Below are positions 3,606 to 45,457 of a stretch of DNA of 64,000 nt, one piece after another. How positions within the stretch are numbered: the first letter of the stretch is position 1; each line of letters begins with the position of its first letter. Origin of the DNA: Chloroflexota bacterium (GTDB taxonomy: Bacteria > Chloroflexota > Anaerolineae > DTLA01); the NCBI GenBank assembly GCA_014360805.1, contig JACIWU010000003.1, forward strand, positions 5,020 through 69,019, in the 5' to 3' direction. Under the pieces are notes generated by a model that did not search any database, was not told where the DNA came from, and worked only from the letters and a program-made list of their open reading frames with translations. Made by a program: the position numbers and the translations under genes.

Positions 3606-5603
3606 TCAAGCGGGTTGGGCCACCTCCACACTCGCGAGGCTGTAGGGGCTGACCGGCGCGCCTGTCTCCCGCGCCCGCAGCCAGCGCAACATCATCGCGT
3701 CGCCGCTGGCCCCGAAGCGGTGCGGGTCGTAGCGGGCCAGGCCCAGCGCGGCGCGCTTGGCGTCTATGTGCGCTAGCGACCGCGCGACAATCTCTTCGGG
3801 ATCGCGCACGAATTCCAACTTGCCGCCGACGCGCTGCTCCCACCCCTGGCTGATGAACTCGGTTACGACGGGGCTGGCCTCCACAGGGTTGTCGCCTCCG
3901 AACAGCGTGTACACACCCGAAGCGACCAAGTATGCCCCGATGGACACCGCTTTCTCGCTCATCCATTCGGGCGCGATGCCCACGCCGGGGATGTCGCTGA
4001 TGTCTTCGCCCAGCCCGCCCTCGGTCGCCATCTGCGACAACACCGTGAGGATGCGCGAATTGTCCACGCACGACCCCATGTGGAGCACGGGCGGGATTCC
4101 CAGCGCCTCGCAGACCTCACGTAGCCCCGCGCCAACCTCATTGAACGCCTGTTCCGGCGACAGCAGCCCGTACTTCGCCGCCGAAATCGCCCCGCATCCG
4201 GTTTGCACCACCAGCACGTCATTGCGGATGAACTCGCGGACGATGTACTCGTGCGCCGCATCATGCGCGCTGGCGCGGGGGTTGTTGCACCCCGCCACGC
4301 CCGCCACACCCCGAATGCGGCCCTGCACGATCGCCTCGTTGAGCGGGCGAAACGACCCCCGATACACGCCGCCCATCATATAGTTCAGGTACTCATGGGA
4401 GAACCCGGCCACCAGGTTGCTCTTGAACTGCGGAATGCGGGTCTCGCCGCGATTGGGGTAGTTGTCAATCGCCATGCGCACCAGGTCTTTGGCGATGGCC
4501 AAGGCGCGCCGCTCGTCCATCTCCACGTGGAGCGCGCCGTGGATTTTCACCTTGGGCGAGGTGGTTACGAGTTTGGTGTGGAACCGCTGGGACAGCGGGG
4601 CCAGCGCCTCCATGATGCATTGCACATCCACCACCATCATCTCCACCGCGCCGGTGAGGATGGCAAGTTCCTGGCTGAGGAAGTTGCCCGCCGTGCCCAC
4701 GCCCTGCCGCATGAGAACCTCGTTGGCCGTGCAGCAGATGCCCGTCAGGTTGATACCCGTCGCGCCCTTGGATTGGGCGTAGGCGATGAGTTCGGGATCC
4801 TGGGATGCCGCGACGATCATCTCCGACAGCGTCGGCTCGTGGCCGTGGACAACGATGTTGACGGTGTCCTTGCCCAGGATGCCCAGGTTGGCCTGGGATT
4901 GCAAAGGCGCGGGCGTGCCGAACAGGATGTCGGTGATGTCGGTGGCCAGCATGGAGCCGCTCCAGCCGTCGGCCAGGGCGCAGCGCAGGCCGGCCATGAG
5001 GATGTGCTCGTGGTCCTGGTCGTCGCCGATGTGGGTGCGGTGGAGCAAATCCACCACCTCGCGGTCAATGCCGCGTGGCGCGATGCCCAGATTGCGCCAG
5101 ATTTCCTGGCGCGGCTTGGGGGCGCGGCGCAGGTAGGCGGCCTCCTTGCGTTGCGACGTGAACTGCTCCATGGCCTTGAGCGCCACGTCGCGGGCCACCT
5201 CCATCGTGCCTCGCTTCTCGGTGGCCACGCCCAAGAAACGCGCCACCTCGCGCAGTTTTCGCTCGTCGCGGATTCGGTAGTCGGGCGCTTCGCCTTCGGC
5301 GGCGGCCAGCAGGGTGAACACCAGGTCGCGCCCGTGATCGGAGTGGGCCGCTGCGCCTACCGCGATCATGCGGGCGAAGTTGCGTGAGGTAACGGTCTCT
5401 ATCGTGGCCCCGCAGATGCCCGTCTGGCCGGGCTTCACCAGGCGGCACGGGCCCATGTGGCAATGCTTGCAGCACGCGCCGATGTGCCCGATGGGGCAGG
5501 GCTTCATCGCCTCGGCGCGGCTGAATGCCGTGGAGACGCCCTCCTGCTCGGCGTACTCCAGCAGGGTACACACCGCAGGGTCAATACTCTTTGTCGTTGC
5601 CAT
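3606..5603 (-). CDS. cooS: Anaerobic Ni-dependent carbon monoxide dehydrogenase catalytic subunit (CooS-type)
   Basis: The N-terminal stretch EQEGVSTAFSRAEAMKPCPIGHIGACCKHCHMGPCRL carries the C-x7-CC-x2-C-x4-C pattern of CooS clusters D and B. The HGHEP and GCNNP motifs of the C-cluster region are also present. I chose MATTKS as the start because it follows a GGAGAGGAGAG ribosome-binding site. Confidence 0.8.
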   Translation of the reverse strand: MATTKSIDPAVCTLLEYAEQEGVSTAFSRAEAMKPCPIGHIGACCKHCHMGPCRLVKPGQTGICGATIETVTSRNFARMIAVGAAAHSDHGRDLVFTLLAAAEGEAPDYRIRDERKLREVARFLGVATEKRGTMEVARDVALKAMEQFTSQRKEAAYLRRAPKPRQEIWRNLGIAPRGIDREVVDLLHRTHIGDDQDHEHILMAGLRCALADGWSGSMLATDITDILFGTPAPLQSQANLGILGKDTVNIVVHGHEPTLSEMIVAASQDPELIAYAQSKGATGINLTGICCTANEVLMRQGVGTAGNFLSQELAILTGAVEMMVVDVQCIMEALAPLSQRFHTKLVTTSPKVKIHGALHVEMDERRALAIAKDLVRMAIDNYPNRGETRIPQFKSNLVAGFSHEYLNYMMGGVYRGSFRPLNEAIVQGRIRGVAGVAGCNNPRASAHDAAHEYIVREFIRNDVLVVQTGCGAISAAKYGLLSPEQAFNEVGAGLREVCEALGIPPVLHMGSCVDNSRILTVLSQMATEGGLGEDISDIPGVGIAPEWMSEKAVSIGAYLVASGVYTLFGGDNPVEASPVVTEFISQGWEQRVGGKLEFVRDPEEIVARSLAHIDAKRAALGLARYDPHRFGASGDAMMLRWLRARETGAPVSPYSLASVEVAQPA

Positions 5604-5635
5604 TGGCTCTCCTCTCCGTTGCTGTGCGGTCGCGC

Positions 5636-5887
5636 TCACTCGGGCTTGCCGATACGCACGCGCCAGATGTCCGGCCCCTGCTCCAGGTACTCCCAGGTGA
5701 ACTGGCCTGGCCGCTCGTACAGAAAGGCGTAGTGGAGCGGCTTGGGGTCGTGATCGTTCACCAAAACGAACGCCTCGCCGGGTCGCAGGCCGTCAAACGT
5801 GGCGTCAATCAGCGGGTGGCGCTCTGGTGGTGGCACCGCGCGGATGTCCAGTTCGCTGGTGATGAATGGGCGCGTTCTCTGCTCCAT
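5636..5887 (-). CDS. DUF2249-family small protein
   Basis: The 83-aa ORF contains PPPERHPLI...FVLVNDHDPKPL...WEYLEQGPDIWRVRI, a pattern typical of DUF2249, which is often found near hemerythrin and NO-stress genes. Confidence 0.65.
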   Translation of the reverse strand: MEQRTRPFITSELDIRAVPPPERHPLIDATFDGLRPGEAFVLVNDHDPKPLHYAFLYERPGQFTWEYLEQGPDIWRVRIGKPE

Positions 5888-5905: not shown

Positions 5906-6460
5906 CTACTGCAGGTATATTCCGCTCAGCCGGTCCAGCATGTGGTGATACTCCTCATGCTTGCCCGGGCCGATGCGCTCCATCTCCACGCGATCAAACC
6001 CTTCCAGCAGGCAGGCCTGCTGCTCGTCCGAGAGGTGCATGTCGGCGATGACGTACAGGATGTTGTCTTCCTTGTCAATGTGCTGGGTGAGCAGGCCGAT
6101 ATAGTTGGAAGCGTTCTGCGCGAAGCGGCGTGCCGCCGCGGGGTCGCCGGCTTTGTACGCGGGCAGCGCGTCGGCCATCGCCCGCACGTAGGAGCGCCCC
6201 TGGTCATGCTCGGCCAGCATCACCGCGATGGGGCCGCCCTCCTTGGGGACGCCTGCCTTCTCCATCTCCCCGAACAGCAGGTCTTCCTCCTTGCCGTGAT
6301 GGCAGCGGTCGGCGAAGGTGCGGATGAAGTCCACCATCTGCTCCATGTGCTCCGGCGGAACCGACTCCCCCACCTGGAGTTTGTCGGCAATCCTGCCCAG
6401 GATGCGCAGCCCCACCTTGATGCCCTGATGCTCCTCTTTGAGAACCTCCGTCGGTCTCAT
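5906..6460 (-). CDS. Hemerythrin-like (HHE cation-binding) domain protein
   Basis: It contains paired His/Glu motifs (EEHQGIK, HHGKEEDLLF, EHDQGRSY, HIDKEDNILY). I placed the start at MRPTEV after a GGAGG ribosome-binding site. The track ORF begins at an upstream TTG. Confidence 0.7.
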   Translation of the reverse strand: MRPTEVLKEEHQGIKVGLRILGRIADKLQVGESVPPEHMEQMVDFIRTFADRCHHGKEEDLLFGEMEKAGVPKEGGPIAVMLAEHDQGRSYVRAMADALPAYKAGDPAAARRFAQNASNYIGLLTQHIDKEDNILYVIADMHLSDEQQACLLEGFDRVEMERIGPGKHEEYHHMLDRLSGIYLQ

Positions 6461-6570
6461 CTTCGCGCCTCCGATTTGCAACGGGCCGATGCCCGATTGT
6501 CAGGTTTCTTGTACATCCAGTATAAACCAGGGGCGCGCTCCTGTATGTGACTTTGGTCGCGTGGGCGCAA

Positions 6571-6675
6571 GAACCGTGCGGCGCACTTCCGAGGTGCGCC
6601 GCACGGTTCGCGCTCTGGAATGCTGAAGCGTGGCGTTGGCATTTGGAATGCTGAAGCGTGGCTTCAGCATTCCAA
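6571..6675. repeat. REP-like palindromic element (16-bp arms GAACCGTGCGGCGCAC/GTGCGCCGCACGGTTC) followed by a duplicated TGGAATGCTGAAGCGTGGC and a second 13-bp-arm hairpin
   Basis: I verified both perfect inverted repeats by reverse-complementing them. They lie in the 210-bp gap between the oxidase subunit I stop and the hemerythrin gene. Confidence 0.7.
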
Positions 6676-6690
6676 GTCTTCGCGGTTGGG

Positions 6691-8337
6691 CTACGCCTCC
6701 GCCGGAGCCAAAGCCGGTTTGCGCTCCAGCCACCGCTCCGGCACCACCAGGCTCAGCACGTTCTTCCACCCCAGCGTGGCGATGATGTTGATGAGGAAGG
6801 CGACAAAGCCCACTGCAATGAGGATGCCGCCGATGACGGCCAGAATCTCGTTCGTCTGGTACTGGCTGCCTTCGGGGTACAGCGTTCGGCGCAACATGCC
6901 CCTCGCCCCCGCCATGCCCATCACGTAGGCCATCCCTACCGAGCCGATCATCCACAGCCAGAAGTGGGCGTCCACGAGGCGTTTGCTCTTGATCTCCAGG
7001 TTCGTCAGCATGGGGATCAGCGCGTACACCACGGCGAACAAGAGCATTGCCAGTCCGGTCAGCAGGAAGGTATGCGCGTGGAGCGACACGACCCACTGGG
7101 TGTTGTGGAACACCACGTTCAGCCCCACGTTGGCCTGGATGAGGCCCGCCGCGCCGCCCATGATGAACCCGAACATGGAGCCGAGCACGAACTTCAGCGG
7201 CGGCGAGAACTTCACGGGCCGCGCCAGCCAGATGGTCATCAGCGTGGCGAACAGCGTCAGGCCCATGGTGAAAAACTCGCCCCACGTGATGAACTGCCCC
7301 GAAATGAGCCGCATCCACAGCGGCTGGCTCTGATCGCCCAGCAGGTGGTGGCTCCATACGCCCAGGGACACGAGCAAGTCCACCATGATGACCGTCTTCA
7401 CCACGTTCTCGCCGAACAGTTTGCGGCCCACCAGCAGCGGCACCAGCAGGTACCACACCCCCGCCGTGTACATGAGCACGTTGCCGTCGGCCACCATGTC
7501 CAGCCCCCACCAGAACCAGTTCTTGTAGATGAGCGGGTCAATGGCGGCGGGGTTCAGCGGCGACTTCACAAGCGCCGCGATGCCATAGACCAAAATCAAC
7601 GCCCCCGCCGTGAGGAGCACGATGGCGTTGATGACGGTGTCAATGGAGCCGCGCGCCACCGCCACGATGAACACGGGCAGCCCGTTGTAGTCCAGGTTGG
7701 GCGCGGCCTTGTCCTCTTTGCCCAGGCGCTTCATCAGCCGCGAGATGCCGAACGCCGCCCGCAGAAACGCGCCGAAACTGTACGAGCCTGGGTTGCTCTT
7801 GCTCAGCACGGTGCTGAAGGTGTTGAACGAGAACAGCAGGATGTTGACCATGATGATGGCCGCGCCGACGGTGAAGGCGATGCTCCCGATGAGCGGCACG
7901 CGGTCATAGGACACGGGCAGCGGCCAGTAGAGCGTGTACAGCGAATTGAACAGCCCGAAGAACCCCGCGCCCCAGCAAATCATCACGCCGACAATCTGCG
8001 CCCAGAAGTTGAAGACCAGCAGTTTCTTGTGGCGAACTTCTTTGCCGAGGAGATAAGGAACCAGGAAGTAAAACGCGCCGAACACCAGCATGTAGGCGAA
8101 GCCGTAGATGCCGACGATGGGGTGCGCCGTGAGCATCGCGTAGAACAATTCCGCCGAGGACACCTCGCGCCCCACGGGCCGCAGCGCCATCAGCGCCTCC
8201 TCCATGCCCCGGAGCGCGCCGGGCGCCGCCAGTTGGGTACGCATGAGCATTCCCTCAAACCCCGACAGCGCCAGGAACAGCAGCCCCACCACCGCGAACC
8301 GCAGCATCCACTTCGTTTGCCAAGTGAGTTTCGCCAT
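6691..8337 (-). CDS. Heme-copper oxidase superfamily subunit I, NOR-like and divergent
   Basis: The protein is 548 aa with about 12 TM helices. It has the helix-II TAHPIVG His ligand, the helix-VII WSHHLLG His pair and the helix-X LHAHTF His pair. The helix-VI position reads WFWWGLDMVADG instead of W..GH(P/N).V. It has no N-terminal quinol-binding extension. Confidence 0.8.
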   Translation of the reverse strand: MAKLTWQTKWMLRFAVVGLLFLALSGFEGMLMRTQLAAPGALRGMEEALMALRPVGREVSSAELFYAMLTAHPIVGIYGFAYMLVFGAFYFLVPYLLGKEVRHKKLLVFNFWAQIVGVMICWGAGFFGLFNSLYTLYWPLPVSYDRVPLIGSIAFTVGAAIIMVNILLFSFNTFSTVLSKSNPGSYSFGAFLRAAFGISRLMKRLGKEDKAAPNLDYNGLPVFIVAVARGSIDTVINAIVLLTAGALILVYGIAALVKSPLNPAAIDPLIYKNWFWWGLDMVADGNVLMYTAGVWYLLVPLLVGRKLFGENVVKTVIMVDLLVSLGVWSHHLLGDQSQPLWMRLISGQFITWGEFFTMGLTLFATLMTIWLARPVKFSPPLKFVLGSMFGFIMGGAAGLIQANVGLNVVFHNTQWVVSLHAHTFLLTGLAMLLFAVVYALIPMLTNLEIKSKRLVDAHFWLWMIGSVGMAYVMGMAGARGMLRRTLYPEGSQYQTNEILAVIGGILIAVGFVAFLINIIATLGWKNVLSLVVPERWLERKPALAPAEA

Positions 8338-8349
8338 CTCACACCTCCC

Positions 8350-8772
8350 CTATGGCACTACGCGAATGGCATTCGGGAAGTACATCTCCGAATGGCGCGG
8401 GCCTGAGTATTCGGTGGAACGCACATCGTACACGCCAGGGGTGTCAAACTTCCACGTAATCTTGTTCTCGTAGCCCGGCAGGACCTGCATCTGGAAGACC
8501 ATCGTCCCATCGGGACGGAACACCCCGAAGCCGTAGGTTACGTCCTTGGACGTGGCGACAAACTGCACGAACTCATTGACCTTGACCTGCACGCCGCCCT
8601 GGGGAAACCGAATCTGGTAGTCTTCAAACTCCAGCGGAACGATTCGGTCGGGCGTGGGGCGAGACCACAGGAGCCACCGTTGCCAGGGAACCAAAGGCGA
8701 GAGTGTGATGGCGTTGACGAGCAGGAACACGCCCACGAGGACGAACAACCAGTTCCGTTCCCGTTTGTCCAT
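8350..8772 (-). CDS. Heme-copper oxidase subunit II-like cupredoxin protein, Cys-free with no CuA or heme c site
   Basis: The protein is 140 aa with an N-terminal TM helix. Its C-terminal beta-rich domain ends ...STEYSGPRHSEMYF, which resembles a degenerate CuA loop lacking both Cys. It contains no CxxCH motif. It is immediately upstream of subunit I. Confidence 0.55.
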   Translation of the reverse strand: MDKRERNWLFVLVGVFLLVNAITLSPLVPWQRWLLWSRPTPDRIVPLEFEDYQIRFPQGGVQVKVNEFVQFVATSKDVTYGFGVFRPDGTMVFQMQVLPGYENKITWKFDTPGVYDVRSTEYSGPRHSEMYFPNAIRVVP

Positions 8773-8773
8773 C

Positions 8774-8878
8774 TCAATCTCCTTTCTCCCTCACTTTCCA
8801 GGCGAAGAGCAGCATGAAGAGGATCGCCAGAACCAGGAATGCCGTGTAAGCCCACCAGATGACATCCGTTGCGTACAT
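8774..8878 (-). CDS. 34-aa single-TM peptide, possible accessory oxidase subunit
   Basis: This ORF is not in the track. My translation is MYATDVIWWAYTAFLVLAILFMLLFAWKVREKGD. It is preceded by an AAGGAGGG ribosome-binding site. Its stop overlaps the subunit II start in a TGAGATG arrangement. Confidence 0.45.
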   Translation of the reverse strand: MYATDVIWWAYTAFLVLAILFMLLFAWKVREKGD

Positions 8879-9100: not shown

Positions 9101-9130
9101 TAAAATATTGACAGCCGCTCGCAATCCGTG
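9101..9130 (+). promoter_or_regulatory. Sigma70-like promoter of htrA (TTGACA-18-TATAAT) with a leader of about 190 nt
   Basis: The sequence ttgacagccgctcgcaatccgtgctataat is a consensus hexamer pair in an AT-richer island of a GC-rich genome. Confidence 0.5.
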
Positions 9131-9327
9131 CTATAATGTGCGCAGAGATCCTTCAACCCTGGCGCCTCATCTGGTCAACGCACGCGGCACCTCGGCACCG
9201 TTTGGTCGGAGAAAGGCGGGTGCTGTGGAATCCTGTCCTTCGGCAAGCATCTGTCGCACAATCGGATTGTCCCCACCCGCCTCTGCCAACGCGTGGGGAA
9301 ATGCAATGTTCAAGGAGCAGAGCACAA

Positions 9328-10485
9328 ATGAAAGCGCGGTTTGACGTACGCAAGTCCTGGGTCTTTTTCGCGGCGGTGTTGCTCCTTCTCCTGGGCTGCG
9401 GCTTCACAGGAGATGGCACATCCACGTCGCCGAGGGCCACGCCGCAACCCACGGCGCTCCCCGTGGTCGTCGCCACGGCCACGCCGCTCCCCCAGCAGGA
9501 CTACGAGTCGCTGGAACTGGAGGAGCGCCTGCTGGTGAACCTGGTCCAGCGCGTCGGTCCCTCGGTGGTGCACATTCAGATCACGACGGCCACCGGCTCG
9601 GGCTCGGGTTCGGGCTTCTTCTACGACCGCGAAGGGCACATCGTTACGAACAACCACGTGGTGGAAGACGCCGAGACCATTCGGGTTGTGCTGGCCGACG
9701 GGTCCCAGGTCGCGGCCGAGGTCGTGGGCACCGACCCCGACGCGGACCTGGCCGTGATCCGCGTGGACGCGCCGGCCGACCTGATCGTGCCGGCCGAACT
9801 GGGCGACTCCAGCAAGGTTCAGGTGGGCCAGTGGGCCGTCGCCATCGGCAACCCGTTTGGCCTGGAACGCACGGTAACGCGCGGCATCATCAGCGCGCTG
9901 GGGCGGGTCTTCCCGCAGGAGAGCGGGTTCTCCATCGCCAACCTCATCCAGACCGACGCCGCCATCAATCCAGGCAACTCCGGCGGGCCACTGCTGGACT
10001 TGCGGGGCCGCGTCATCGGCGTCAACACCATGATCGTGTCGGAGACCGGCGCGTCGGCGGGGCTGGGGTTTGCCATCCCCGTGAACATCGTCAAGAAGGT
10101 GGCGCCCGCCCTCATCAAAGACGGCTTCTACGCGCACCCGTGGCTGGGCATCCAGGGCTACACCATCACGCCCGAACTGGTGGAGGCTCTGGCCCTGCCC
10201 GTGGAGCGCGGCGCGCTGGTGGGCCAGGTAACGGCCGGCGGCCCTGCCGATAAGGCCGGGCTGCGAGGCGGGCGGCGCACCGTGCGGGTGCCCGGCTACT
10301 TGGAGCCGGTCCAGGCCGGCGGCGACATCATCGTGGGCATAGACGGCAATCGGGTAACCGGCATGGACTCGCTCATCAGTTACCTGGACTTCACCGAGGC
10401 CGGCCAGGTTGTCGTGCTGGATGTGATTCGCGGCACAGAGCGGCTGTCCATTCGGGTTACCCTGGGCCAGCGCCCGCGCAGGTAA
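9328..10485 (+). CDS. htrA: HtrA/DegP-family serine protease with a PDZ domain, lipoprotein signal peptide
   Basis: The start follows an AAGGAG ribosome-binding site. The signal peptide has an LLGC lipobox. The trypsin-fold motifs GNSGGPL and HVVEDAE are present, followed by a C-terminal PDZ domain. Confidence 0.9.
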   Translation: MKARFDVRKSWVFFAAVLLLLLGCGFTGDGTSTSPRATPQPTALPVVVATATPLPQQDYESLELEERLLVNLVQRVGPSVVHIQITTATGSGSGSGFFYDREGHIVTNNHVVEDAETIRVVLADGSQVAAEVVGTDPDADLAVIRVDAPADLIVPAELGDSSKVQVGQWAVAIGNPFGLERTVTRGIISALGRVFPQESGFSIANLIQTDAAINPGNSGGPLLDLRGRVIGVNTMIVSETGASAGLGFAIPVNIVKKVAPALIKDGFYAHPWLGIQGYTITPELVEALALPVERGALVGQVTAGGPADKAGLRGGRRTVRVPGYLEPVQAGGDIIVGIDGNRVTGMDSLISYLDFTEAGQVVVLDVIRGTERLSIRVTLGQRPRR

Positions 10486-10501
10486 CCGTGGGAGGAGATC
10501 C

Positions 10502-10843
10502 GTGACCGGCAATCCTTCGCCGCAGGAACCCTGCTACGTCATCAGTGTGGCGGCAAAGTTGGTGGGTGTTCATCCCCAGACCCTTCGCTACTACGAGAGT
10601 CTGGGGTTGATCAAGCCATGCCGGTCGCCGGGGAACAGGCGGCTGTACTCGCCCCGCGACATTGAACGATTGCGGCAAATCCAGCGTCTTACGGATGAGT
10701 TGGGCGTCAACCTGGCGGGGGTGGAGGCCATCTTGTCGCTCATGGATCAAGTCGCGCAGATGAAAGCGGAGATGGAAGCCCTACAGGCGCGCTTTGAACG
10801 CGAAGTTGCCTTGCTGAAGAGCAAGTTGCAGGGTAGCGAGTAG
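10502..10843 (+). CDS. hspR: MerR-family heat-shock regulator (HspR-like)
   Basis: The ORF has a GTG start after a GGGAGGAG ribosome-binding site. The MerR helix-turn-helix reads CYVISVAAKLVGVHPQTLRYYESLGLIKP. It sits upstream of clpB in the classic HspR arrangement. Confidence 0.8.
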   Translation: MTGNPSPQEPCYVISVAAKLVGVHPQTLRYYESLGLIKPCRSPGNRRLYSPRDIERLRQIQRLTDELGVNLAGVEAILSLMDQVAQMKAEMEALQARFEREVALLKSKLQGSE

Positions 10844-10880
10844 GCGGCAAGAAATCGGATCATGCAAACAGGAGGACAGT

Positions 10881-11972
10881 ATGTTTGACGAAAAGGACGT
10901 TCGCGAACTGGCGGCTTTTCACGCAGATGGAGCCACGGTGTTGAGCCTGTACCTGAGCACAGATCCTTCCCGCCATCTCAAGGACGAAGCGAAGTTGAGC
11001 CTGCGCGGAATGTTGAAGCAGGCGATCGCGCTGGGCGCGGCCCAGTCCGACGCGGACCGCATGGAGCGTTTCGTGGACTTGGAATACGATTGGAAGGCCA
11101 AGGGGTTGGCCATGTTCTCGTGCCAGGAGGAGGGTTTCTGGCGGGCCCTTCCGGTCAGCGTGCCGGTCAGCAACCACGTCTTCGTGGCCGACCGACCGTA
11201 TGTGAAGCCGCTGAGCGACATGCTGGACGAATACGGCAAGTTCGCCGTGGCGCTGGTGGACCAGGAAGGAACCCGCGTGATCCTGTACCATCTCGGCATG
11301 GTGGAAGACACCGCGGGGACATTCGGCACGGAGTTGAAGCGCCACAAGAAGGGCGGCTGGGCGGCCCAGCGGTTGCAGCGCCGCCAGGATGAGAAAGCCC
11401 ACCAGAATCTGAAAGAGGCCGCGTCGCTCGTCAAAGACTTCTGCAACAGGCACCAGTGCAAGCGGCTCATCGTGGGCGGGCAGGACGAGACGGTGTCAAA
11501 GTTTCTGACCATGCTGCCCAAGGCATTGCGCGATAGTGTGATCGGCACCATGTCCATAGACATCACGGCGTCGGAAAGCGAGGCGCTGGAGCGGGCGCAA
11601 GATTTGCTGGAGGAGGCAGAGCGCGCTCGCGAAGCCGAACTCGTCCAGCAGGTGGTTACCGCGGCGACCAAAGGCGGGCCGGGTGCTATCGGCCTGGCCG
11701 ACACGCTGACCGCGCTCCAGGAGGAGCGGGTGCATATCCTCGTGGTGGAAGAGGGCTTCCAGGCCACCGCGTTCCGATGCGACCACTGCGGCTACATCGG
11801 CGCCCAAGATACGGGAAAATGCGTCTATTGCGGAGGCCCCATGGTTCTCATCAAGGACGCGGTGGATGCCATCGTCCGCCGCGCCATCCAGCGGGGCGTG
11901 GAGGTGGAATTCGTGCAGGGGAACGACGCCCTGACGCGCGCAGGCCAGATCGGCGCGCTCTTGCGGTATTAG
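10881..11972 (+). CDS. eRF1/Pelota-like (baeRF1 or host-attachment-family) protein with a C-terminal zinc ribbon
   Basis: The loop ELKRHKKGGWAAQRLQRRQDEKAH closely parallels the eukaryotic eRF1 GGQ loop KKHGRGGQSALRFARLR, with GGQ replaced by GGW. The C-terminus carries CDHCGY...CVYCGG. Confidence 0.55.
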   Translation: MFDEKDVRELAAFHADGATVLSLYLSTDPSRHLKDEAKLSLRGMLKQAIALGAAQSDADRMERFVDLEYDWKAKGLAMFSCQEEGFWRALPVSVPVSNHVFVADRPYVKPLSDMLDEYGKFAVALVDQEGTRVILYHLGMVEDTAGTFGTELKRHKKGGWAAQRLQRRQDEKAHQNLKEAASLVKDFCNRHQCKRLIVGGQDETVSKFLTMLPKALRDSVIGTMSIDITASESEALERAQDLLEEAERAREAELVQQVVTAATKGGPGAIGLADTLTALQEERVHILVVEEGFQATAFRCDHCGYIGAQDTGKCVYCGGPMVLIKDAVDAIVRRAIQRGVEVEFVQGNDALTRAGQIGALLRY

Positions 11973-12015
11973 CCCCTGCACCCAGGGCCGGCACGCGCCG
12001 GCGAGGTGAAGACCT

Positions 12016-14493
12016 ATGATGCGATTTGATCGGTTTACAGAGCGCGCGCAGGATGCGGCCATGCGCGCCTACGAGATCCTTCAGCGCTACAACCACACGC
12101 AGGTGGACACCGAGCACCTGCTCCTGGCGCTGATAGAACAGTCGGGGGGCGTGATCCCCCAGATTCTGGACAAACTGGGCGTGGACGCCGAGACGCTCAA
12201 GCAGCGCCTTGAGGCGACATTGCGCGCCGCGCCCAGAACCGCGGGGTTCGGCAGCGCCATGCCCGGCCAGATGTTCATCACGCCGCGCCTGAAGCACGTG
12301 GTGGACACCGCCAACGAGGAAGCGAATCGCCTGAAGGACGACTACATCTCCACCGAGCACCTGTTCCTGGCCATCCTGGCGGAGCGGGGCTCGCCGGCGT
12401 CGCGGCTGCTGGAAGAGATGGATGTTACCCGCGAGCGCGTCCTGGACGCCATTGCGCAGGTGCGGGGCGGGCAGAAGGTTACCTCTCCGCAGGCCGAATC
12501 ACGCTACCGCACGTTGGAGCGGTACACGCGCGACCTCACCCAACTGGCCCGGGAGGGCAAACTGGACCCCGTCATCGGCCGCGACAAAGAGATCATGCGC
12601 GTGATGCAGATTCTGTCGCGCCGCACCAAGAACAACCCGGTGCTCATCGGCGAGGCGGGCGTGGGCAAGACGGCCATCGTGGAGGGCCTGGCCCAGAAGA
12701 TTGTGCAGGACGACGTGCCCGAAATCCTGATGGGCAAGCGCGTCCTCGCCCTGGACCTGGGCGCGATGGTGGCGGGCACGCGGTTCCGCGGCGAGTTTGA
12801 GGAGCGCCTGAAGACCGCCATTGAGGAGATTCAGCGCGCCCAGGGCGAGATCATCCTCTTCATTGACGAACTCCACACCGTAGTTGGCGCGGGCGCCGCC
12901 ATGGGCGCTATGGACGCCTCCAACATGCTGAAGCCCGCCCTGGCCAGGGGCGAACTCCAGTGCGTGGGCGCCACGACGCTAGACGAATACCGTCGCTACA
13001 TAGAGAAAGACGCGGCCCTGGAGCGCCGTTTCGCGCCCGTGTTCGTGGACGAGCCGTCGGTGGAGGAGACGATCCAGATGCTGCGGGGCGTGCGCGATCG
13101 CTACGAGGCGCATCACAAGGTGCGCTTCTCCGACGAAGCCTTGGTCGCCGCGGCGCGCCTGTCCAAACGCTACGTAACCGACCGGCACCTGCCCGACAAG
13201 GCCATTGACCTGATAGACGAGGCGGCCTCCAAACTGCGGATGGCGATTCACAGCATGCCGCCCGAACTCAAGGAGAAGCGGGCCGCCATCCACAAACTCG
13301 CCACCGAGGAAGAGGCCGCCTGGCAGCGTCGCGACTACGAAAAGGCCGCCGTCTATCGCAGCGAGCGCCTGCGGTTGGAACAGGAATTCAACGCCGCCCG
13401 CGAAGCCTGGCAGCGCGAAAAGAACATTGACGAAGTCGTGGACGTGCAGGACATCGCCGAGGTGGTGGCCACGTGGACCGGCATACCGGTTACGGCGCTC
13501 ATGGAGACCGAAGCCGAGCGCCTCGTGCACATGGAGGAGCGGCTCCACGAGCGCATCGTGGGGCAGGATGAGGCCATCCGCGCCGTGTCCAACGCCATCC
13601 GCCGGGCGCGGTCCGGGCTGAAAGACCCGCGCCGCCCCATCGGGTCGTTCATCTTCCTCGGCTCGTCGGGCGTCGGCAAGACCGAGTTGGCCAAGGCGCT
13701 GGCCTGGTTCCTGTTTGACGACGAGGAGGCCCTGGTGCGCGTGGACATGAGCGAATACCGCGAGCGCCACACGGTGTCCCGTCTCATCGGCGCGCCGCCC
13801 GGCTACGTGGGCTACGAAGAGGGCGGGCAACTGACCGAGGCCGTCCGCCGCAGACCCTATCAGGTCGTGCTGTTTGACGAGATAGAGAAGGCGCACCCCG
13901 AAGTCTGGAACGCCCTGCTGCAGATTCTGGAGGACGGCCGCCTGACCGACGGCCAGGGCCATACGGTGGACTTCCGCAACACGGTGGTCATCATGACCTC
14001 CAACATCGGCACACAGTACACCCGCAAGGGCGGCACGTTGGGCTTCCGCGCGGGCGACGCGCGGGACGCCGAGGAGCGGGCCGCGCACGAGGCCATTGAG
14101 CGCGGCCTGCGCGAGACCTTCCGGCCCGAGTTCCTGAACCGCGTGGACGAGATCATCATCTTCCACACGCTCACGTTGGACCAGGTCAAGCAGATCGTGG
14201 ACCTCCAGATGAAGGAGATTCGCGCCCGTCTGCGCGAGCAGGGCGTGGAGGTGGAATTGACCGAGGCCGCGCGCGACTGGCTGGCGCGGGAGGGCTACGA
14301 CCCCAACTTCGGCGCGCGACCGCTGCGCCGGGCGCTCCAGAAGCACGTGGAGAACGCCCTGGCGCTGCGCCTGCTGAGCGGCGAATTCCGAGAGGGCGAC
14401 ATCATCATCGTGGATGCAGGCGACACGGGCATCCGCTTCTACCGCAAGGAGAGCGTGGAACTCCCGTCGGATTCCGTCGCCGCAAGCCCGTGA
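12016..14493 (+). CDS. clpB: ClpB AAA+ disaggregase chaperone
   Basis: The Clp N-domain is followed by two Walker A motifs (GEAGVGKT and GSSGVGKT) with a coiled-coil middle domain between the nucleotide-binding domains. Confidence 0.95.
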
Positions 14494-23728: not shown

Positions 23729-26700
23729 TCACGGGGTTACGGTGAACTTCGCGCCTCCGCTCCGCCCGAACGTCTCGGGGAAGTACATCTCGTAGGCCAC
23801 CGCCGGCATGACCAGGAACTCGCCCGGCACGCTGGCCCGCAGCAGGTACGTGTACTCATACGTGCCCGCGGGCACCGACGTGGCGAACAGCGCGACCTTC
23901 TCGTCGCGAATCTCGGTGTGCGAGAAGACCCACCAGCCCCACACGTCCTCCTCGCCCGTCCGGCGGAACTGCGGCTGCTCCAGCAGTTGGCTGGTCGTCC
24001 GCAGGCTGGTATCCACCGCCTCCGTGCCGCCTGGAATCGGATCTTCCACCACCAGGTAGTGCAGCGAACTCGGCGCGATGACCGTGAGTTTCACGCGGAT
24101 GATGTCGCCGACCCTGGCCGTGGCGACTTCCCGGGTCGGGTCATCCGCCAGCGTGTACTGGCGCAGGACGATGACCCCGCGATTCAGCGGGCCTACCTGC
24201 TCCACCGGCAGGTAGTACTTCAGCGCGGCGGAATAGTACAGCGCGCCTTTCTCGGCCTGCCCGCCCGTCAACGGCGACCGCTCCACGATCACGCGGTTGC
24301 CCACATCCTTCAGCAAATCCTTGAGCGGGATGCTGACCACGCGCGGGGCATCCACGGTGTCGGGCCGCACATCGCCCGCCAGCACGCGCTTCCCGTTGAG
24401 GCCGACCTGATACCGGTACTCGCCCTCCAACTCGCCGGTCTGGGCGGCGTAATCGGTCAGGGCCATGAGCGCCCATGCGTTCTCCTGCGTGGTGCCCCAG
24501 CGCCCGTCCTGGCGCGCGGCCATGAGCCAGCGAACCGCATTGGGCAGCAGCGCGTTGTCGGGCGTAAGGCGCACCAGCGCCCGCAACACGATGGCCGTGC
24601 TGCGCACGTCGGTGTTCATCAAGAAGCGGTCGGTCTGGGCCTCCTCCCAGTGAGCACCCGTGGCGCTCAAGACCGCCTGTCCGTTGAGTTCGGCCAGCAG
24701 CGCGCGCACCTGGCCTGCGTGAGCATCGCCGGCGGCCTGCAGGGCCTGCGCCAGGAACGCCTTGCCGTAGTGTCCGAGAAGATGCCGCTTCTCAAACAGG
24801 GCCACGGATCGGGCGGTGTCGCCCGCGCCGAACTCGCTCAGGACGTACAGGATGAAGGCCTGTTCGTTGGCCGCTGTTGCATCCTGGACGCCCGCCACGT
24901 CCAGCGAGGACTTCAGGAATCGCACGGCCCGCTCCATGACCGACGAGTCCACGCCAAATCCGGCGCGTCTGGCCTCATTCAGCCCCAGCAGCACGTAGGC
25001 CGTGATGTAGGGGTGGCTTTGCTCGGTGTACCACCACCCCCAACCCCCGTCCACGTTCTGCGAGGCGTACAGTTTCTGCAAGCCCACCGCCACCAGGTCG
25101 GGCAGTTTGGCCTCCAACTCCTCATTGCGCACGCCAAGCCGCTTGTAGGCTTGCCACGCCGCCACGTTGGGCAGGAATCGGCTCACCGTCTGCTCGGCGC
25201 ACTCGTAGGGGAAGTGCTCCAGGTAACCCAGGGCATCCTTCATGCCGGCCACGAGGGACGGATCCAGCCGCACGGTGAAGTCGCCCTGCGAAGGCTCGTA
25301 CACATCCGGCAACTGCACGATCTCCACCTGCTGCTCGCCCGCGCGGACTTCGCCCGCGGTGGCCACGACTTCCGGCGTCGTGAAGTGATAGACCGGTAGC
25401 GTGAGGGCGATGGCGTCCTCCAGCCCGCCCCCCGCGGCGCGCACGGACACCGTAACCTGCTCGTCGGCCCCGATGGTGCCGTTCCACGTGAGTTTCTGGA
25501 GACCCCTGGCCGGGATGTCCACGCTCTCGGTGCGGCCGAAGTCCGAACGCTCGCCGCGGACGGCCACCTGCACCTGCACGCGCAGCGCCTGGTCGGTGTT
25601 GTTGTGGACGATGGCGGCCAATTCCGGCTTGTCGCCGATGACGAAGAAGCGCGGCGCCACCACGCGCACCAGCAGGGGCTTGGTAACCACGATGTCCGAT
25701 GTGGACGAACCAACCTGCGTGTTGGCCGTCGCGCCGTCGGCCACCATGCGCCACGTGGTCAGCGAGTCGGGCAAGTTGACCGCAACCGTGGCCCTGCCTG
25801 CGGCGTCGGTGCGCAGCGCAGGCTCCCAGAAGGCGGTGTCGGGGAAGTAGGTGCGGGCTGTCATGGCTCCCTCAGCACCGCCCCCGCCCTTGCCTTCGGG
25901 CGCAGGCTCGGCCTCGCGCTCGGCCACGGCAAGGGTCAGACTGGCGGCCGTCCGGATGCCAAGCCCGCGCTTGCGATAGAAGAAGTCCAGGATGTCCGGG
26001 CCGGGCCGCTGCGCCAGCGCCAGCACCGAAGCGTCCACCAGCGCCAGCGACACCTCGGCGGGCACGCCCTGTCCGTTGGCGTCCAGCGTCTCCACGGTGA
26101 ACTGCGCCGTGTCGCGCGGGCCATAGGCTCCCGCACGGTCGGGGGTAACCCGAATCGTGAGATGCTTCTCGGCGGCGGACACCTGCAGCGCCACGTAGCC
26201 CACCCGGAACGACGCGAACGGTTCGGCCGCACCCTTGCCCTTCACAAGCACCACCGATACGTAGGCGTTGGGAATCAGATCTTCGGTGATGGGAATATCC
26301 ACCTGGTCGCTGTTGGTCTGCAGCGTCAGCACGCGATACGAGAGGATTCCGGCCCGCTCCACGGTGAGGAGCGCCATCACCGGCCCCTGGAAGGGGCTGG
26401 GGACGAGGATGTGCGCCGTTTCCCCAGGTGCGTAACTCTTCTTGTCGGCGATGAGTTCCATGCGGTTGTTGTTCTCCATGCGCCACGACACGTACTCATC
26501 GCCCACGCCCGACACCCACAGGTACGTGGCGCTGCGGACTTCGTTGCCGCGTGCGTCGCGCCCCAGCGCCAGCACTCGGTAACTGCCGCCCTCCGGCGGG
26601 ACAAAGGACGCCACCGCCGCGCCCTTGTCGTCTGTCGTGATCGTCTGTGTGAATACCGGCGTGTCGGTGAAGCGCGTCGTCCAGTAGAACCCGCCATCGG

Positions 26701-29581
26701 GCCACTTCTCCTGAACGCTGTACCAGTCGCGCAGGGAGAAAATGACGGTCAGCGGCACGTTGGGAACAGGCTCGCTCTTGCTGTTCACCGTGATGATGGA
26801 GACATCCGTGGGCTTGCCTGCCGTGCCCACGTAGGCTTTCGGCGACAGGCCAATGTAGAACTCGCCCTTGTGCACGGGAGCCGCCGTCCGTCCGCTCACC
26901 TCCTGGCCGTTCACGTCCGTAACATTGGCCTCAATGGAGAAGGTCTGGCTGGCCGTGAACTTGGCCAGGTCGGCGGGAACCGCGAAGGAGAAGCGGCCTT
27001 CGGCGTCGGTCGTCCCTTCGCCGCTGGCCACCACCTGCGCGCCGGTGTCCTCGCGCGTCCAGTAGTCCCAATCGTGGAAGTCGTACCAGCCCTGGCCCTG
27101 CCACGCGAAGAAGTAGGGTTGCGCCACGATGTTCCATCGGACTTTCGCGTTGGCCACCGGAGCGCCGAAGTAGTACTTGGCCAGCACGCTGACCTCTACG
27201 CGGTCGCCCTGGACGTATTCGGGCTGATTGGTCGCAACCGTGATTTCGTATTCCGGCTTGCGGTATTCGGCCACCTGGAAGGACGTGCTGAACTGCAGCG
27301 GGGCCTGCTTGTACCCGTGGGTGGTGGCGGCCTCGCTCGCGGGCGTCGCGTAAATCCAGTAGATGCCCGTGGGCGCGTTCTCGGCCAACGTCAGGCTGCC
27401 GTACACCGTCCCCAGGTCGCTCATCTGGAGCGTCTGGCTGTAGAACTGCTGGCCCTGCGGGTCAGAAACCGTAACGCGAAGCGGGCCGATGTCGGGCAGC
27501 GAGTAGCGCGCGTCGTCATCGGCGCGGACGATGCCCTTGAAGTAAACCGTCTGCCCGGGGCGGTAGATGGGCCTGTCCGTGTAGAAGTAGCCGACAAGGG
27601 GCGTGAGCCACGACTCGCTGGGGATGGAAAACTCCCAGGGGTCAATCCCCGCCGACCAGGGGCTGCCGGTTACGGCCAGGGACTCGCCGGAGCCGGCCAC
27701 AACCGTGAGGGCTTCCCACAAGTCGCGAGGCTGGGCAAACTGTCCGCGCCACACGCCCTCGGCATTCGTCAGACCGTCCATGAGCATCTTGCCGCTGCCG
27801 TCGTACACCTTCAGCGGCAGGGAATCTATCGGCTGGCCGCTCACGAGGTCGGTGGCCCACACCAGCACGTCCTTAGGCCCGTGCTTCAGCACCAGGTTCG
27901 TGCGGGTTACCACCAGCGCCATCCCCTGCGGGCGAGAGACCTTCTCGGGGATGTCGGGCGAGGAGAGCATGAGGTAGTACACGCCGGGCGGCAGCGGGCG
28001 GGTGGCGTCGGCGGTGAGGGGCACGTCCAGGGTCTGCGTCTTGTTCCGAGGCGCGTTCACCGCCACTTCCCACGCGCGCAGCAGGCTCTCGTTCCGCGGC
28101 GCAAACTTGTCGCGGTATTCCCAGTCGTCGCCGTTGAGGCGCACGAACTCGTCCAGCGACAGGGCGTACAAGCGCAGATTGACGCGGGCGATATTGCGGT
28201 AGGCGATGGGAATCTGCACCGGATTGTAGGCGTTGAAAACGGTGGCGTCGCCCCACCTGCCGACCACGTACAGGCTGGGGTCCAAGTCGCGCGTGTGGAA
28301 CGCCAGGACGTAATCCCGGCCCAGGGTGTTCCCGTATGGGTCCGCCGCCGAAGCCGGAATGGTGATTCGGTAATCCGTGTCCGGCTGGAGCCGAACGGAG
28401 AGTTGCAGCGAGTCCTCGTACTCATTCCAGTACGCCTGCCATGCGGTGCCTTCCGGCTCCACGCGCAGGGTGGGGGTGATGGTCTCCAGGAGCATGGGGC
28501 CGGCGAACCAAATCTGCACCCAAGCGTAGGGCGAGACGGCGGTCTCGTTGGCTCCAGGGCTTGTCCGAACCACGCGAGGCTTCGGCACGACGCCGAACGG
28601 CCACTTCTCTGTCGTTGCTAGCGTCCCGCCGGAAGCCGACCGCACGCCCGCCGCCACCGACGCCACATACCCCATGCCCATGCGCAGGGGCGCGCTCGGC
28701 TTGAAGTACAGCGTGCTCCCCTGCCACGAGAACGTGCCCGCCACCTTGCTGCCCGTCTGGATCTCGCGCAGGGCGAACCCCGCTTCCACGGAGGCCGCGT
28801 CCATGGGCTGGTTGAATGAGACGATGACCTGGGCCGTGGGCGCGACCTTCATCCCCTGCGGCTGGACGCCGGTGATCTTGGGCGACTCCGTGGTGAACGT
28901 CCACGAGTAGTCCTCGGCCAGCACGCTGCCCGTGGTATCCTGCAGGCCCGCGGCGACGGTGGCCCGATAGGTTGTGGATCCCGCCAGGCCCTCGGCGGGG
29001 CGGAAGATGTAGATGGACGTGTTGAGCCACTCGCCTGTGCCGGCGACGGGCGGCTCCAGGCGCAGTGGCTGGGGCAGGTCCTGGGCGCGCTTGAGATCCG
29101 TGAGCGGCACGACCGGCCTGTTGAAGATGACGGTGATGGCGATGTCCCGCTCTACCTCGGCGGCTCCATCCGCGGGCTGCGTCTGGGAGACGCGAAGGCT
29201 GCCCACCGTCTGGAATCGCAGGACGACTTCATCGGCCAGGGACAGGCCCGCGCTGGACTTGACCCCCTTGCCGAGCACGACGCGGTAGGTGGTGGCCGGC
29301 TCCAGCGGCGCTGCCGGCCGGAAGACCAGCCTGCGATCCTCCAGGACCCACTGCCCCGGAATCGCAGGGTCAATGCGCACCTGTCCCTCCAGGGACTTCG
29401 GATCCATGGGCTGGTTGAACTCCACGACGAGCGGCGCTCCCACCGGCAGTTCCTCGGAGGGGAGCGGAGTCTGCCGCACGATTCGCGGGATCGCGGGGGG
29501 TTGCTTGGGGCCGCACGAGACGGCCACAAGCGCCAGAAGGACAATCACGACCACAAACGTTACGCTGCGCCAAGATTTCAT
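23729..29581 (-). CDS. Bacterial alpha-2-macroglobulin family lipoprotein, thioester-containing
   Basis: The protein is 1950 aa and starts MKSWRS after an AGGAGG ribosome-binding site. The signal peptide has an LVAVSC lipobox. The thioester motif YECAEQ is present. The body is large and beta-rich, as expected for an alpha-2-macroglobulin. Confidence 0.85.
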   Translation of the reverse strand: MKSWRSVTFVVVIVLLALVAVSCGPKQPPAIPRIVRQTPLPSEELPVGAPLVVEFNQPMDPKSLEGQVRIDPAIPGQWVLEDRRLVFRPAAPLEPATTYRVVLGKGVKSSAGLSLADEVVLRFQTVGSLRVSQTQPADGAAEVERDIAITVIFNRPVVPLTDLKRAQDLPQPLRLEPPVAGTGEWLNTSIYIFRPAEGLAGSTTYRATVAAGLQDTTGSVLAEDYSWTFTTESPKITGVQPQGMKVAPTAQVIVSFNQPMDAASVEAGFALREIQTGSKVAGTFSWQGSTLYFKPSAPLRMGMGYVASVAAGVRSASGGTLATTEKWPFGVVPKPRVVRTSPGANETAVSPYAWVQIWFAGPMLLETITPTLRVEPEGTAWQAYWNEYEDSLQLSVRLQPDTDYRITIPASAADPYGNTLGRDYVLAFHTRDLDPSLYVVGRWGDATVFNAYNPVQIPIAYRNIARVNLRLYALSLDEFVRLNGDDWEYRDKFAPRNESLLRAWEVAVNAPRNKTQTLDVPLTADATRPLPPGVYYLMLSSPDIPEKVSRPQGMALVVTRTNLVLKHGPKDVLVWATDLVSGQPIDSLPLKVYDGSGKMLMDGLTNAEGVWRGQFAQPRDLWEALTVVAGSGESLAVTGSPWSAGIDPWEFSIPSESWLTPLVGYFYTDRPIYRPGQTVYFKGIVRADDDARYSLPDIGPLRVTVSDPQGQQFYSQTLQMSDLGTVYGSLTLAENAPTGIYWIYATPASEAATTHGYKQAPLQFSTSFQVAEYRKPEYEITVATNQPEYVQGDRVEVSVLAKYYFGAPVANAKVRWNIVAQPYFFAWQGQGWYDFHDWDYWTREDTGAQVVASGEGTTDAEGRFSFAVPADLAKFTASQTFSIEANVTDVNGQEVSGRTAAPVHKGEFYIGLSPKAYVGTAGKPTDVSIITVNSKSEPVPNVPLTVIFSLRDWYSVQEKWPDGGFYWTTRFTDTPVFTQTITTDDKGAAVASFVPPEGGSYRVLALGRDARGNEVRSATYLWVSGVGDEYVSWRMENNNRMELIADKKSYAPGETAHILVPSPFQGPVMALLTVERAGILSYRVLTLQTNSDQVDIPITEDLIPNAYVSVVLVKGKGAAEPFASFRVGYVALQVSAAEKHLTIRVTPDRAGAYGPRDTAQFTVETLDANGQGVPAEVSLALVDASVLALAQRPGPDILDFFYRKRGLGIRTAASLTLAVAEREAEPAPEGKGGGGAEGAMTARTYFPDTAFWEPALRTDAAGRATVAVNLPDSLTTWRMVADGATANTQVGSSTSDIVVTKPLLVRVVAPRFFVIGDKPELAAIVHNNTDQALRVQVQVAVRGERSDFGRTESVDIPARGLQKLTWNGTIGADEQVTVSVRAAGGGLEDAIALTLPVYHFTTPEVVATAGEVRAGEQQVEIVQLPDVYEPSQGDFTVRLDPSLVAGMKDALGYLEHFPYECAEQTVSRFLPNVAAWQAYKRLGVRNEELEAKLPDLVAVGLQKLYASQNVDGGWGWWYTEQSHPYITAYVLLGLNEARRAGFGVDSSVMERAVRFLKSSLDVAGVQDATAANEQAFILYVLSEFGAGDTARSVALFEKRHLLGHYGKAFLAQALQAAGDAHAGQVRALLAELNGQAVLSATGAHWEEAQTDRFLMNTDVRSTAIVLRALVRLTPDNALLPNAVRWLMAARQDGRWGTTQENAWALMALTDYAAQTGELEGEYRYQVGLNGKRVLAGDVRPDTVDAPRVVSIPLKDLLKDVGNRVIVERSPLTGGQAEKGALYYSAALKYYLPVEQVGPLNRGVIVLRQYTLADDPTREVATARVGDIIRVKLTVIAPSSLHYLVVEDPIPGGTEAVDTSLRTTSQLLEQPQFRRTGEEDVWGWWVFSHTEIRDEKVALFATSVPAGTYEYTYLLRASVPGEFLVMPAVAYEMYFPETFGRSGGAKFTVTP

Positions 29582-29693
29582 AGAGGCCTCCTGAGCAAAC
29601 GAAAGCACGCCGAAGCGTGCGCGCACTTCAATCTACAGACGCACGGCGGGCGCGTCAGGTTCCCGCCGCACAGCCATCCGAGGCATCAGGGCG

Positions 29694-45428: not shown

Positions 45429-45457
45429 ACCCACCAACCCACGCAGATTCCGGGACG

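Follow-up and report, generated by a model that had tools for sequence, protein, structure and literature searches.

A compact three-gene operon on the minus strand of a 64,000-nucleotide (nt) stretch of Chloroflexota contig JACIWU010000003.1 (hereafter the window; genome G+C content 65%) encodes a protein with the fold of a heme-copper oxidase subunit I whose active-site residues are not those of an oxidase. The locus raises the question of which reaction such an enzyme would catalyze and from where it would draw its electrons. We conclude that the operon probably encodes a gNOR-type enzyme, a three-subunit member of a heme-copper oxidoreductase (HCO) branch that is probably related to the B-type (ba3) oxidases and predicted to reduce nitric oxide (NO). 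A preliminary description of this DNA had proposed a nitric oxide reductase (NOR)-type branch such as gNOR or sNOR, with the protein as either a member or a new variant. Membership in gNOR is supported, and the new-variant reading is rejected because every unusual feature of the locus is common to the whole family and already published, which makes this a typical gNOR member.

gNOR is described as the sole HCO family in which an active-site histidine is replaced, the replacement being aspartate; the CuA residues are missing from its cupredoxin subunit, quinol oxidation is considered possible, and members occur in Bacteria and Archaea (Murali et al. 2024, PMC11214002). In Table A4 of PMC8756737, derived from Hemp & Gennis, the gNOR "active-site residue" is given as Asp, versus Tyr in oxidases and Glu in cNOR, and the hosts listed in the same source are Sulfurimonas, Sulfurovum and Persephonella. 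Curated gNOR hidden Markov models are now routine in denitrification surveys. The family was defined in Sulfurimonas and Sulfurovum, and Candidatus Methylomirabilis is another gNOR host. The family is reportedly attributed to Sievert et al. 2008 and Hemp & Gennis 2008 as well.

Active-site residues of subunit I

Subunit I matched the PF00115 COX1 profile over its full length (E=4.9e-65), and its AlphaFold2 (AF2) model (pLDDT 72, pTM 0.79) aligned in Foldseek searches of the PDB with A- and B-type oxidase subunit I structures, likewise over the full length, at a TM-score of ~0.7. The residue register was set in a MAFFT L-INS-i alignment of the window protein, 17 family members from many phyla and the 14 nearest non-family oxidases or NORs, which serve as outgroups throughout. 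In agreement with the preliminary description, the histidine ligands of helices II, VII and X are retained (H72, H330/H331 and H420/H422; Table 1), the axial heme ligands among them. The HxH pair of helix X is a conserved feature of the family and recurs in 13 of the 14 outgroups; directly before it, the family carries a one-residue insertion. The assignment of H420 and H422 to their respective hemes follows ba3 numbering. In the single exception, the sNOR-like outgroup P0168, helix X reads YVH where the others have HxH, and tyrosine apparently takes the place of the proximal histidine at the high-spin heme.

Helix VI departs from the oxidase pattern, with residues 274-285 of subunit I reading WFWWGLDMVADG. 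The preliminary description had placed either leucine or aspartate at the position of the helix-VI histidine and had concluded that no His/Tyr pair exists there. The multiple alignment shows no conserved histidine and decides for aspartate: D280 (GAC, 7498-7500) fills the active-site His column, and D284 (GAC, 7486-7488) fills the column of the cross-linked tyrosine, the position held by tyrosine in oxidases and glutamate in cNOR, so that the pair is indeed absent. The alternative register, which puts L279 under the histidine, came from HMMER pairwise alignments to A-type or mitochondrial-type PDB chains that pair G278 with the glycine of G-H and need a gap to do so. We rejected it because, against B-type-like outgroups reading ..WFFGHPVVY.., the multiple alignment needs no gap from a shared D-P-L-x-x-K-N anchor up to and including the His and Tyr columns. 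Helix VI of P0168, the nearest outgroup that also has the WWGL context, is WWGLHSYVN, with its histidine exactly at the D280 position. At the D284 column the outgroups carry either tyrosine (oxidase-like) or asparagine (sNOR/bNOR-like), the helix-VI H...N arrangement being found in P0168, P0181, P0217, P0231 and P0255. From the two aspartate columns, together with the retained H330/H331, we predict a non-heme metal site of two histidines and one or two carboxylates, without a tyrosine cofactor.

The same helix-VI signature recurs in relatives from many lineages. A word-indexed database search returned more than 3000 relatives of subunit I, the best 120 of which are 73-93% identical to it and come mostly from Anaerolineae/Chloroflexota metagenome-assembled genomes (MAGs). 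Scanning one genome per species placed relatives in at least 576 genomes; 80 loci were kept and 74 subunit I sequences extracted from them. The motif WWGLD[ML][VI]ADG, with aspartate at the D280 position, is invariant in all 74 and likewise throughout alignments A1 and A2. The 80 loci include Chloroflexota, Sulfurimonas, Sulfurovum and other Campylobacterales, Bacteroidales, Ignavibacteriaceae, Omnitrophota and many Thermoproteota/Bathyarchaeia archaea. The top genome match is the Anaerolineae MAG H111_75, whose subunit I is 97% identical and which also has flanking genes in common with the window, and full-length relatives from Sulfurimonas (L070) and Sulfurovum (L079) have the identical motif at 43-44% identity.

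The boundary of this group is sharp. In an exhaustive HMMER search against representatives clustered at 50% identity, the motif is present in two full-length sequences, at 54% and 43% identity, and the next full-length sequences, at 31% identity or less, have the canonical histidine. Family members are 38.5% identical or more to one another and no more than 28.4% identical to the nearest outgroups, and a neighbor-joining tree recovers the family as monophyletic; judged from these comparisons, it is a discrete clade. Database records label the homologues "cbb3-type cytochrome c oxidase subunit I" or "cytochrome c oxidase subunit 1". Such labels are misleading for a protein without the CuB histidine, the tyrosine cofactor or a cytochrome-c/CuA entry point.

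Subunit II, the 34-residue peptide and the operon

Pfam-type searches with subunit II gave weak COX2/CoxB matches, and among solved structures it comes nearest to the CuA domain and subunit II of Thermus thermophilus ba3 oxidase, with E values of about 5e-6 to 7e-5; we predict a cupredoxin fold. The protein has one transmembrane (TM) segment at residues about 6-30, contains no cysteine and has no heme-c motif. At the CuA motif C-x3-C-x3-H-x2-M both cysteines are serines (S119, S123) and the histidine and methionine are kept (H127, M130), as checked at the codons, and the first CuA histidine (DVxHGF) is replaced by Y80 (8533-8535). With both bridging cysteines gone, a binuclear CuA cannot form. 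The ba3 alignment thus upholds the earlier view of a cupredoxin-like, cysteine-free subunit II with neither CuA nor heme c, while the earlier reading of its C terminus was mistaken: the protein does not end at PRHSEMY, and nine further residues (FPNAIRVVP) follow. Going by these residues, it is reasonable to suppose that electrons would be unable to enter through CuA or heme c, a view in line with the quinol oxidation suggested for gNOR in the literature.

Across the family, subunit II is cysteine-free in most members and has serine at both bridging positions in nearly all. The consensus RSTEYSGP.H..M keeps the His127 and Met130 positions in most members, and the Campylobacterales subunit II also lacks the His/Met tail. 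A complete CuA ligand set (DVTHGF ... RCTEYCGFRHSEM) was found in subunit II of a Thermofilaceae archaeon MAG (L053:1863-2288), where it is partnered with a gNOR-type subunit I reading WWGLDLVADG. Judging by its ligands, this archaeal pair may represent an evolutionary intermediate of gNOR that has retained CuA.

The 34-residue peptide has a single hydrophobic segment at residues about 5-28. In 41 related loci, nearly all of them from Chloroflexota, a small TM open reading frame (ORF) precedes subunit II by 1-6 nt; about 36 of these ORFs are exactly 34 residues long, and 38 of the peptides yield a shared consensus (My.tdviWW.YTaf.v.valFml.Fa..Vr.KG.). In a few archaeal loci, TM ORFs of 27-42 residues occupy the same place. 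Because position, length and consensus are conserved in this way, we regard the 34-residue ORF as a real gene. A PDB search with the peptide produced no meaningful match, and there is no detectable sequence similarity to ba3 subunit IIa. The ba3 oxidase consists of subunit I, a subunit II with one TM helix and a 3.8-kDa, one-helix subunit IIa (PMC3141039; PMC4742706). By position, size and topology the 34-residue peptide would be an analogue of subunit IIa, and we found no mention of such a gene in the published gNOR descriptions compared.

The three ORFs lie where the preliminary description had put them, tightly packed on the minus strand in the order 34-residue peptide, subunit II, subunit I (5' to 3'). 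A Shine-Dalgarno sequence (AAGGAGG) precedes the first, and its stop codon is fused to the subunit II start as TGA-G-ATG, confirming the translational coupling proposed earlier; a second Shine-Dalgarno sequence, GGGAGG, lies between the 140-residue ORF and the ATG of the 548-residue ORF. The codon-position G+C pattern of these ORFs is that of real genes in a genome of 65% G+C. A sigma-70 promoter scan of the minus strand found none for the operon. In 76 of the 80 related loci the subunit II gene immediately precedes that of subunit I, and since the two are kept in this same order, the pattern is far beyond chance.

Genomic setting

Table 1. Coordinates of the operon, its predicted ligand residues and the downstream features in the window
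Feature	Position	Strand	Basis or note
34-residue single-helix peptide gene	8878..8774	minus	Shine-Dalgarno sequence, coupled stop/start, one hydrophobic segment
Subunit II of the probable gNOR, 140 residues; one N-terminal TM helix and predicted cupredoxin domain without CuA site	8772..8350	minus	Weak COX2/CoxB; ba3 CuA relatives
CuA-motif remnant S119-TEY-S123-GPR-H127-SE-M130	8383..8418	minus	Residue-level HMMER alignment to ba3 CuA domain
Subunit I of the probable gNOR, 548 residues; predicted catalytic, 12-helix heme-copper-oxidase fold	8337..6691	minus	PF00115, AF2/Foldseek
H72, helix-II axial ligand of low-spin heme (TAHPIVG)	8122..8124	minus	Invariant in family and outgroups
Helix-VI signature W274-F-W-W-G-L-D280-M-V-A-D284-G285	7483..7518	minus	MAFFT L-INS-i alignment with outgroups
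H330-H331, helix-VII His pair, predicted non-heme metal ligands (WSHHLLG)	7345..7350	minus	Kept in family and most outgroups
H420-A-H422, helix X (LHAHTF)	7072..7080	minus	H420 high-spin heme, H422 low-spin heme (by ba3 numbering)
Hairpin-forming repeat directly downstream of subunit I	6590..6700	minus	Two exact 17-mers, RNA minimum free energy
Hemerythrin-domain protein, probably a separate transcript	5906..6481	minus	PF01814 E=5e-22; weak similarity to YtfE/RIC/DnrN repair proteins
DUF2249 gene	5887..5636	minus	Profile match
Ni-CO-dehydrogenase CooS	5639..3606	minus	TIGR01702, 612 bits; top PDB matches are real CO dehydrogenases, ~1e-185

Downstream of subunit I, the 17-mer GGAATGCTGAAGCGTGG occurs in two exact copies (6617-6633 and 6645-6661), with none expected by chance, before the hemerythrin gene is reached. 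The 111 nt that include both copies (6590-6700) have an RNA minimum free energy of -48.4 kcal/mol, contain no T tract and drew no call in a terminator scan. This repeat is probably an operon boundary or an RNA-stabilizing element, with a terminator or a small repeat element as further possibilities. Farther downstream, the stop codon of the DUF2249 gene overlaps the CooS start by 4 nt. A reading of CooS as an HCP-like type V CO dehydrogenase (CODH-V), which would have carried a link to nitrosative stress, was ruled out by its matches to Ni-CODHs at ~1e-185 versus 1e-80 to CODH-V. In an Omnitrophota locus (L058), homologues of the hemerythrin, DUF2249 and CooS genes lie within the 8-kb flanks of gNOR, on both sides.

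Genes associated with nitric oxide recur beside the operon in related loci. The hemerythrin homologue is the commonest gNOR neighbor: the flanks of 12-18 of the 80 loci carry one, in Chloroflexota as well as in archaea and Bacteroidota. In nine Bacteroidales/Ignavibacteria loci the gene immediately upstream of the operon encodes an Rrf2-family regulator, a Crp/Fnr regulator occurs in six gNOR loci, and YgbA_NO (PF11756) occurs in three Chloroflexota loci; examples from this set are L066:6864-7256, L012:3426-3809 and L021:9858-10568. Rrf2, YgbA_NO and Crp/Fnr proteins are typical of NO-responsive regulons, and their recurrence next to gNOR fits an NO-responsive role.

Two neighbors without a Pfam match were also seen: a protein of ~200 residues immediately downstream of gNOR in six Campylobacterales/Myxococcales loci (for example L079:9679-10281), and one of 440-560 residues downstream of gNOR in six Chloroflexota loci (for example L009:9741-11117). 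Either could be an unrecognized accessory subunit or assembly factor. Divergent from the operon within the window, a heat/protein-stress cluster at 9136-14493 encodes an HtrA protease, a MerR-family (HspR-like) regulator, a baeRF release-factor-like protein and ClpB, and a perfect sigma-70 consensus (TTGACA, 18 nt, TG-TATAAT) stands ahead of it at 9108-9137 on the plus strand. Two giant minus-strand ORFs (36651-45437 and 23729-29626; 2928 and 1965 residues) show a coding-like pattern of G+C at third codon positions.

Predicted chemistry and relation to known systems

For the probable gNOR, the most likely electron donor is a membrane (mena)quinol that would deliver electrons directly to the low-spin heme (His72/His422), because subunit II has lost CuA and no heme c is present. 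Electrons would then pass to a binuclear center in which the high-spin heme, on His420, is paired with a non-heme metal. The ligands of this metal would be His330, His331 and the Asp280 carboxylate, a set that would suit iron better than copper. The adjacent Asp284 could provide a second carboxylate or a proton relay. The predicted reaction is the two-electron reduction 2 NO + 2 e- + 2 H+ -> N2O + H2O, and a four-electron reduction of O2 is unlikely because there is no tyrosine cofactor. The 34-residue peptide would act as a structural one-helix subunit comparable to ba3 IIa.

Several points weigh against this assignment. The NOR activity of the gNOR family is itself a published prediction (PMC11214002), and the link from the window operon to the name gNOR is indirect, running through diagnostic residues and host genera. 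AF2 confidence for subunit I is moderate (pLDDT 72). Sequence and fold searches do not separate A-type from B-type affinity for subunit I, which scores alike against structures of both, and the features that point to B-type are subunit II and the IIa-like peptide. A His-to-Glu heme-ligand change mentioned for gNOR in one preprint (FIND; 10.1101/592808), outside the PNAS definition, is not seen in the window protein or the family, where H72, H420 and H422 are all histidine. Finally, no nir, nar or nos gene was found among the annotated ORFs of the window. With the hemerythrin-domain neighbor, this last observation leads us to NO scavenging or detoxification as the most likely role, possibly a respiratory one.

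The absence of nir and nos genes from the annotated ORFs of the window would also fit a gNOR member with some other chemistry, such as NO dismutation, reduction of nitrous oxide (N2O) or of peroxide/peroxynitrite, or a sulfide-tolerant reaction. Given that the family function is predicted and that unusual HCO branches elsewhere have been proposed as NO dismutases or N2O reductases (PMC11214002), this deserves mention; we nevertheless consider it unlikely, as those proposed families lie on the qNOR/cNOR side of the tree, a synthetic bioinorganic mimic of the gNOR site reduces NO (PMC11214002), and the Rrf2, YgbA_NO, Crp/Fnr and hemerythrin neighbors of related loci fit an NO response. A similarly small weight goes to the proposal that gNOR, the window enzyme included, might be more than a simple NO-detoxifying reductase: a quinol-fed, IIa-stabilized enzyme with a 2-His/2-Asp site could perform energy-conserving (electrogenic) NO reduction or other sulfide-tolerant small-molecule chemistry, and the Thermofilaceae pair would then mark a transition from a cytochrome-c/CuA-fed to a quinol-fed enzyme.

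That CuA-bearing archaeal subunit II also makes a CuA-dependent ancestor plausible, and His127 and Met130 are kept across most of the family. Both observations would suit an NO reductase fed through subunit II by a soluble periplasmic donor, with these two residues (and perhaps Tyr80) binding a mononuclear metal or docking a carrier. We find this improbable: the Ser-Ser replacement in nearly all members makes a binuclear CuA impossible, the Campylobacterales members do without the His/Met tail, and conserved candidate quinol-binding residues have been reported for gNOR (PMC11214002). The public annotation implies instead a divergent O2 reductase of the B-type lineage that works as a microaerobic terminal oxidase, and the full-length oxidase fold, the conserved heme ligands and the ba3-like operon layout are what would be expected of one. 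Here the case is very weak, since O2 reduction in the heme-copper superfamily requires a redox-active tyrosine (PMC11214002) and the protein has Asp284 instead of a cross-linkable tyrosine, aspartate for one of the three CuB histidines, and neither CuA nor heme c. Decay to a non-functional oxidase remnant, which the loss of canonical ligands in both subunits might suggest, is in effect refuted by altered residues that are invariant across phyla and domains, by intact and coupled ORFs, and by the number of species genomes and database proteins in which relatives occur.

Assignment of the operon to gNOR matters beyond this genome, as gNOR is one of several predicted NO reductase families possibly behind much unrecognized N2O production. 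The locus shows that Anaerolineae, abundant inhabitants of sediments, wastewater and the subsurface, commonly carry gNOR and that it is routinely mislabeled there as cbb3-type; the correct label shifts the reading of a genome from aerobic respiration to NO reduction. No new principle emerges beyond the published gNOR description. The additions are small, comprising a fixed register for Asp280 and Asp284, the Ser-Ser CuA remnant, the conserved IIa-like peptide, the NO-responsive neighbors in related loci and the CuA-retaining archaeal relative.

Compared with gNOR as described, the window operon has the same aspartate for the helix-VI histidine, aspartate at the tyrosine position and CuA-less cupredoxin subunit II, and nothing essential differs. 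It comes from Anaerolineae, whereas the family was first noted in sulfur-oxidizing Campylobacterota/Aquificota, and it carries the conserved 34-residue subunit-IIa-like gene. The Thermus thermophilus ba3 oxidase (PDB 1EHK/3S8F) has the same three-subunit layout, a small one-helix subunit with a single-TM cupredoxin subunit II and a subunit I; unlike it, the window enzyme lacks the three-His CuB and the His-Tyr cross-link (D280/D284) as well as the CuA cysteines (S119/S123). Taken together against ba3, the His-to-Asp, Tyr-to-Asp and CuA Cys-to-Ser changes argue that the enzyme is neither an O2 reductase nor dependent on cytochrome c. The helix-VI stretch FWW..(H/D)...(Y/D) of ba3 presumably aligns ungapped with the window protein, His233 corresponding to Asp280 and Tyr237 to Asp284; the GHPVVY outgroups provide the equivalent comparison in the MAFFT alignment.

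With cNOR and qNOR, the window enzyme would share the predicted reaction and a heme/non-heme-metal site that has a carboxylate ligand and no tyrosine, and like qNOR it would probably be quinol-fed. Those enzymes, however, have three histidines and one glutamate and fall on the C-family side of the tree, whereas two histidines and one or two aspartates are predicted here, and the partner is a cupredoxin protein in place of a NorC heme-c subunit or a fused N-terminal (quinol) domain. Escherichia coli bo3 (CyoAB) likewise has a CuA-less cupredoxin subunit II and draws its electrons from quinol, as predicted here, but it is an A-type O2 reductase with a three-His CuB, a His-Tyr cofactor and a two-TM subunit II. 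sNOR and bNOR are B-family-derived NOR branches with cupredoxin subunits, and P0168 even shares the WWGL context; they keep the helix-VI histidine and have asparagine at the tyrosine position (WWGLHSYVN, GHxxxN), whereas the window protein has aspartate at both.

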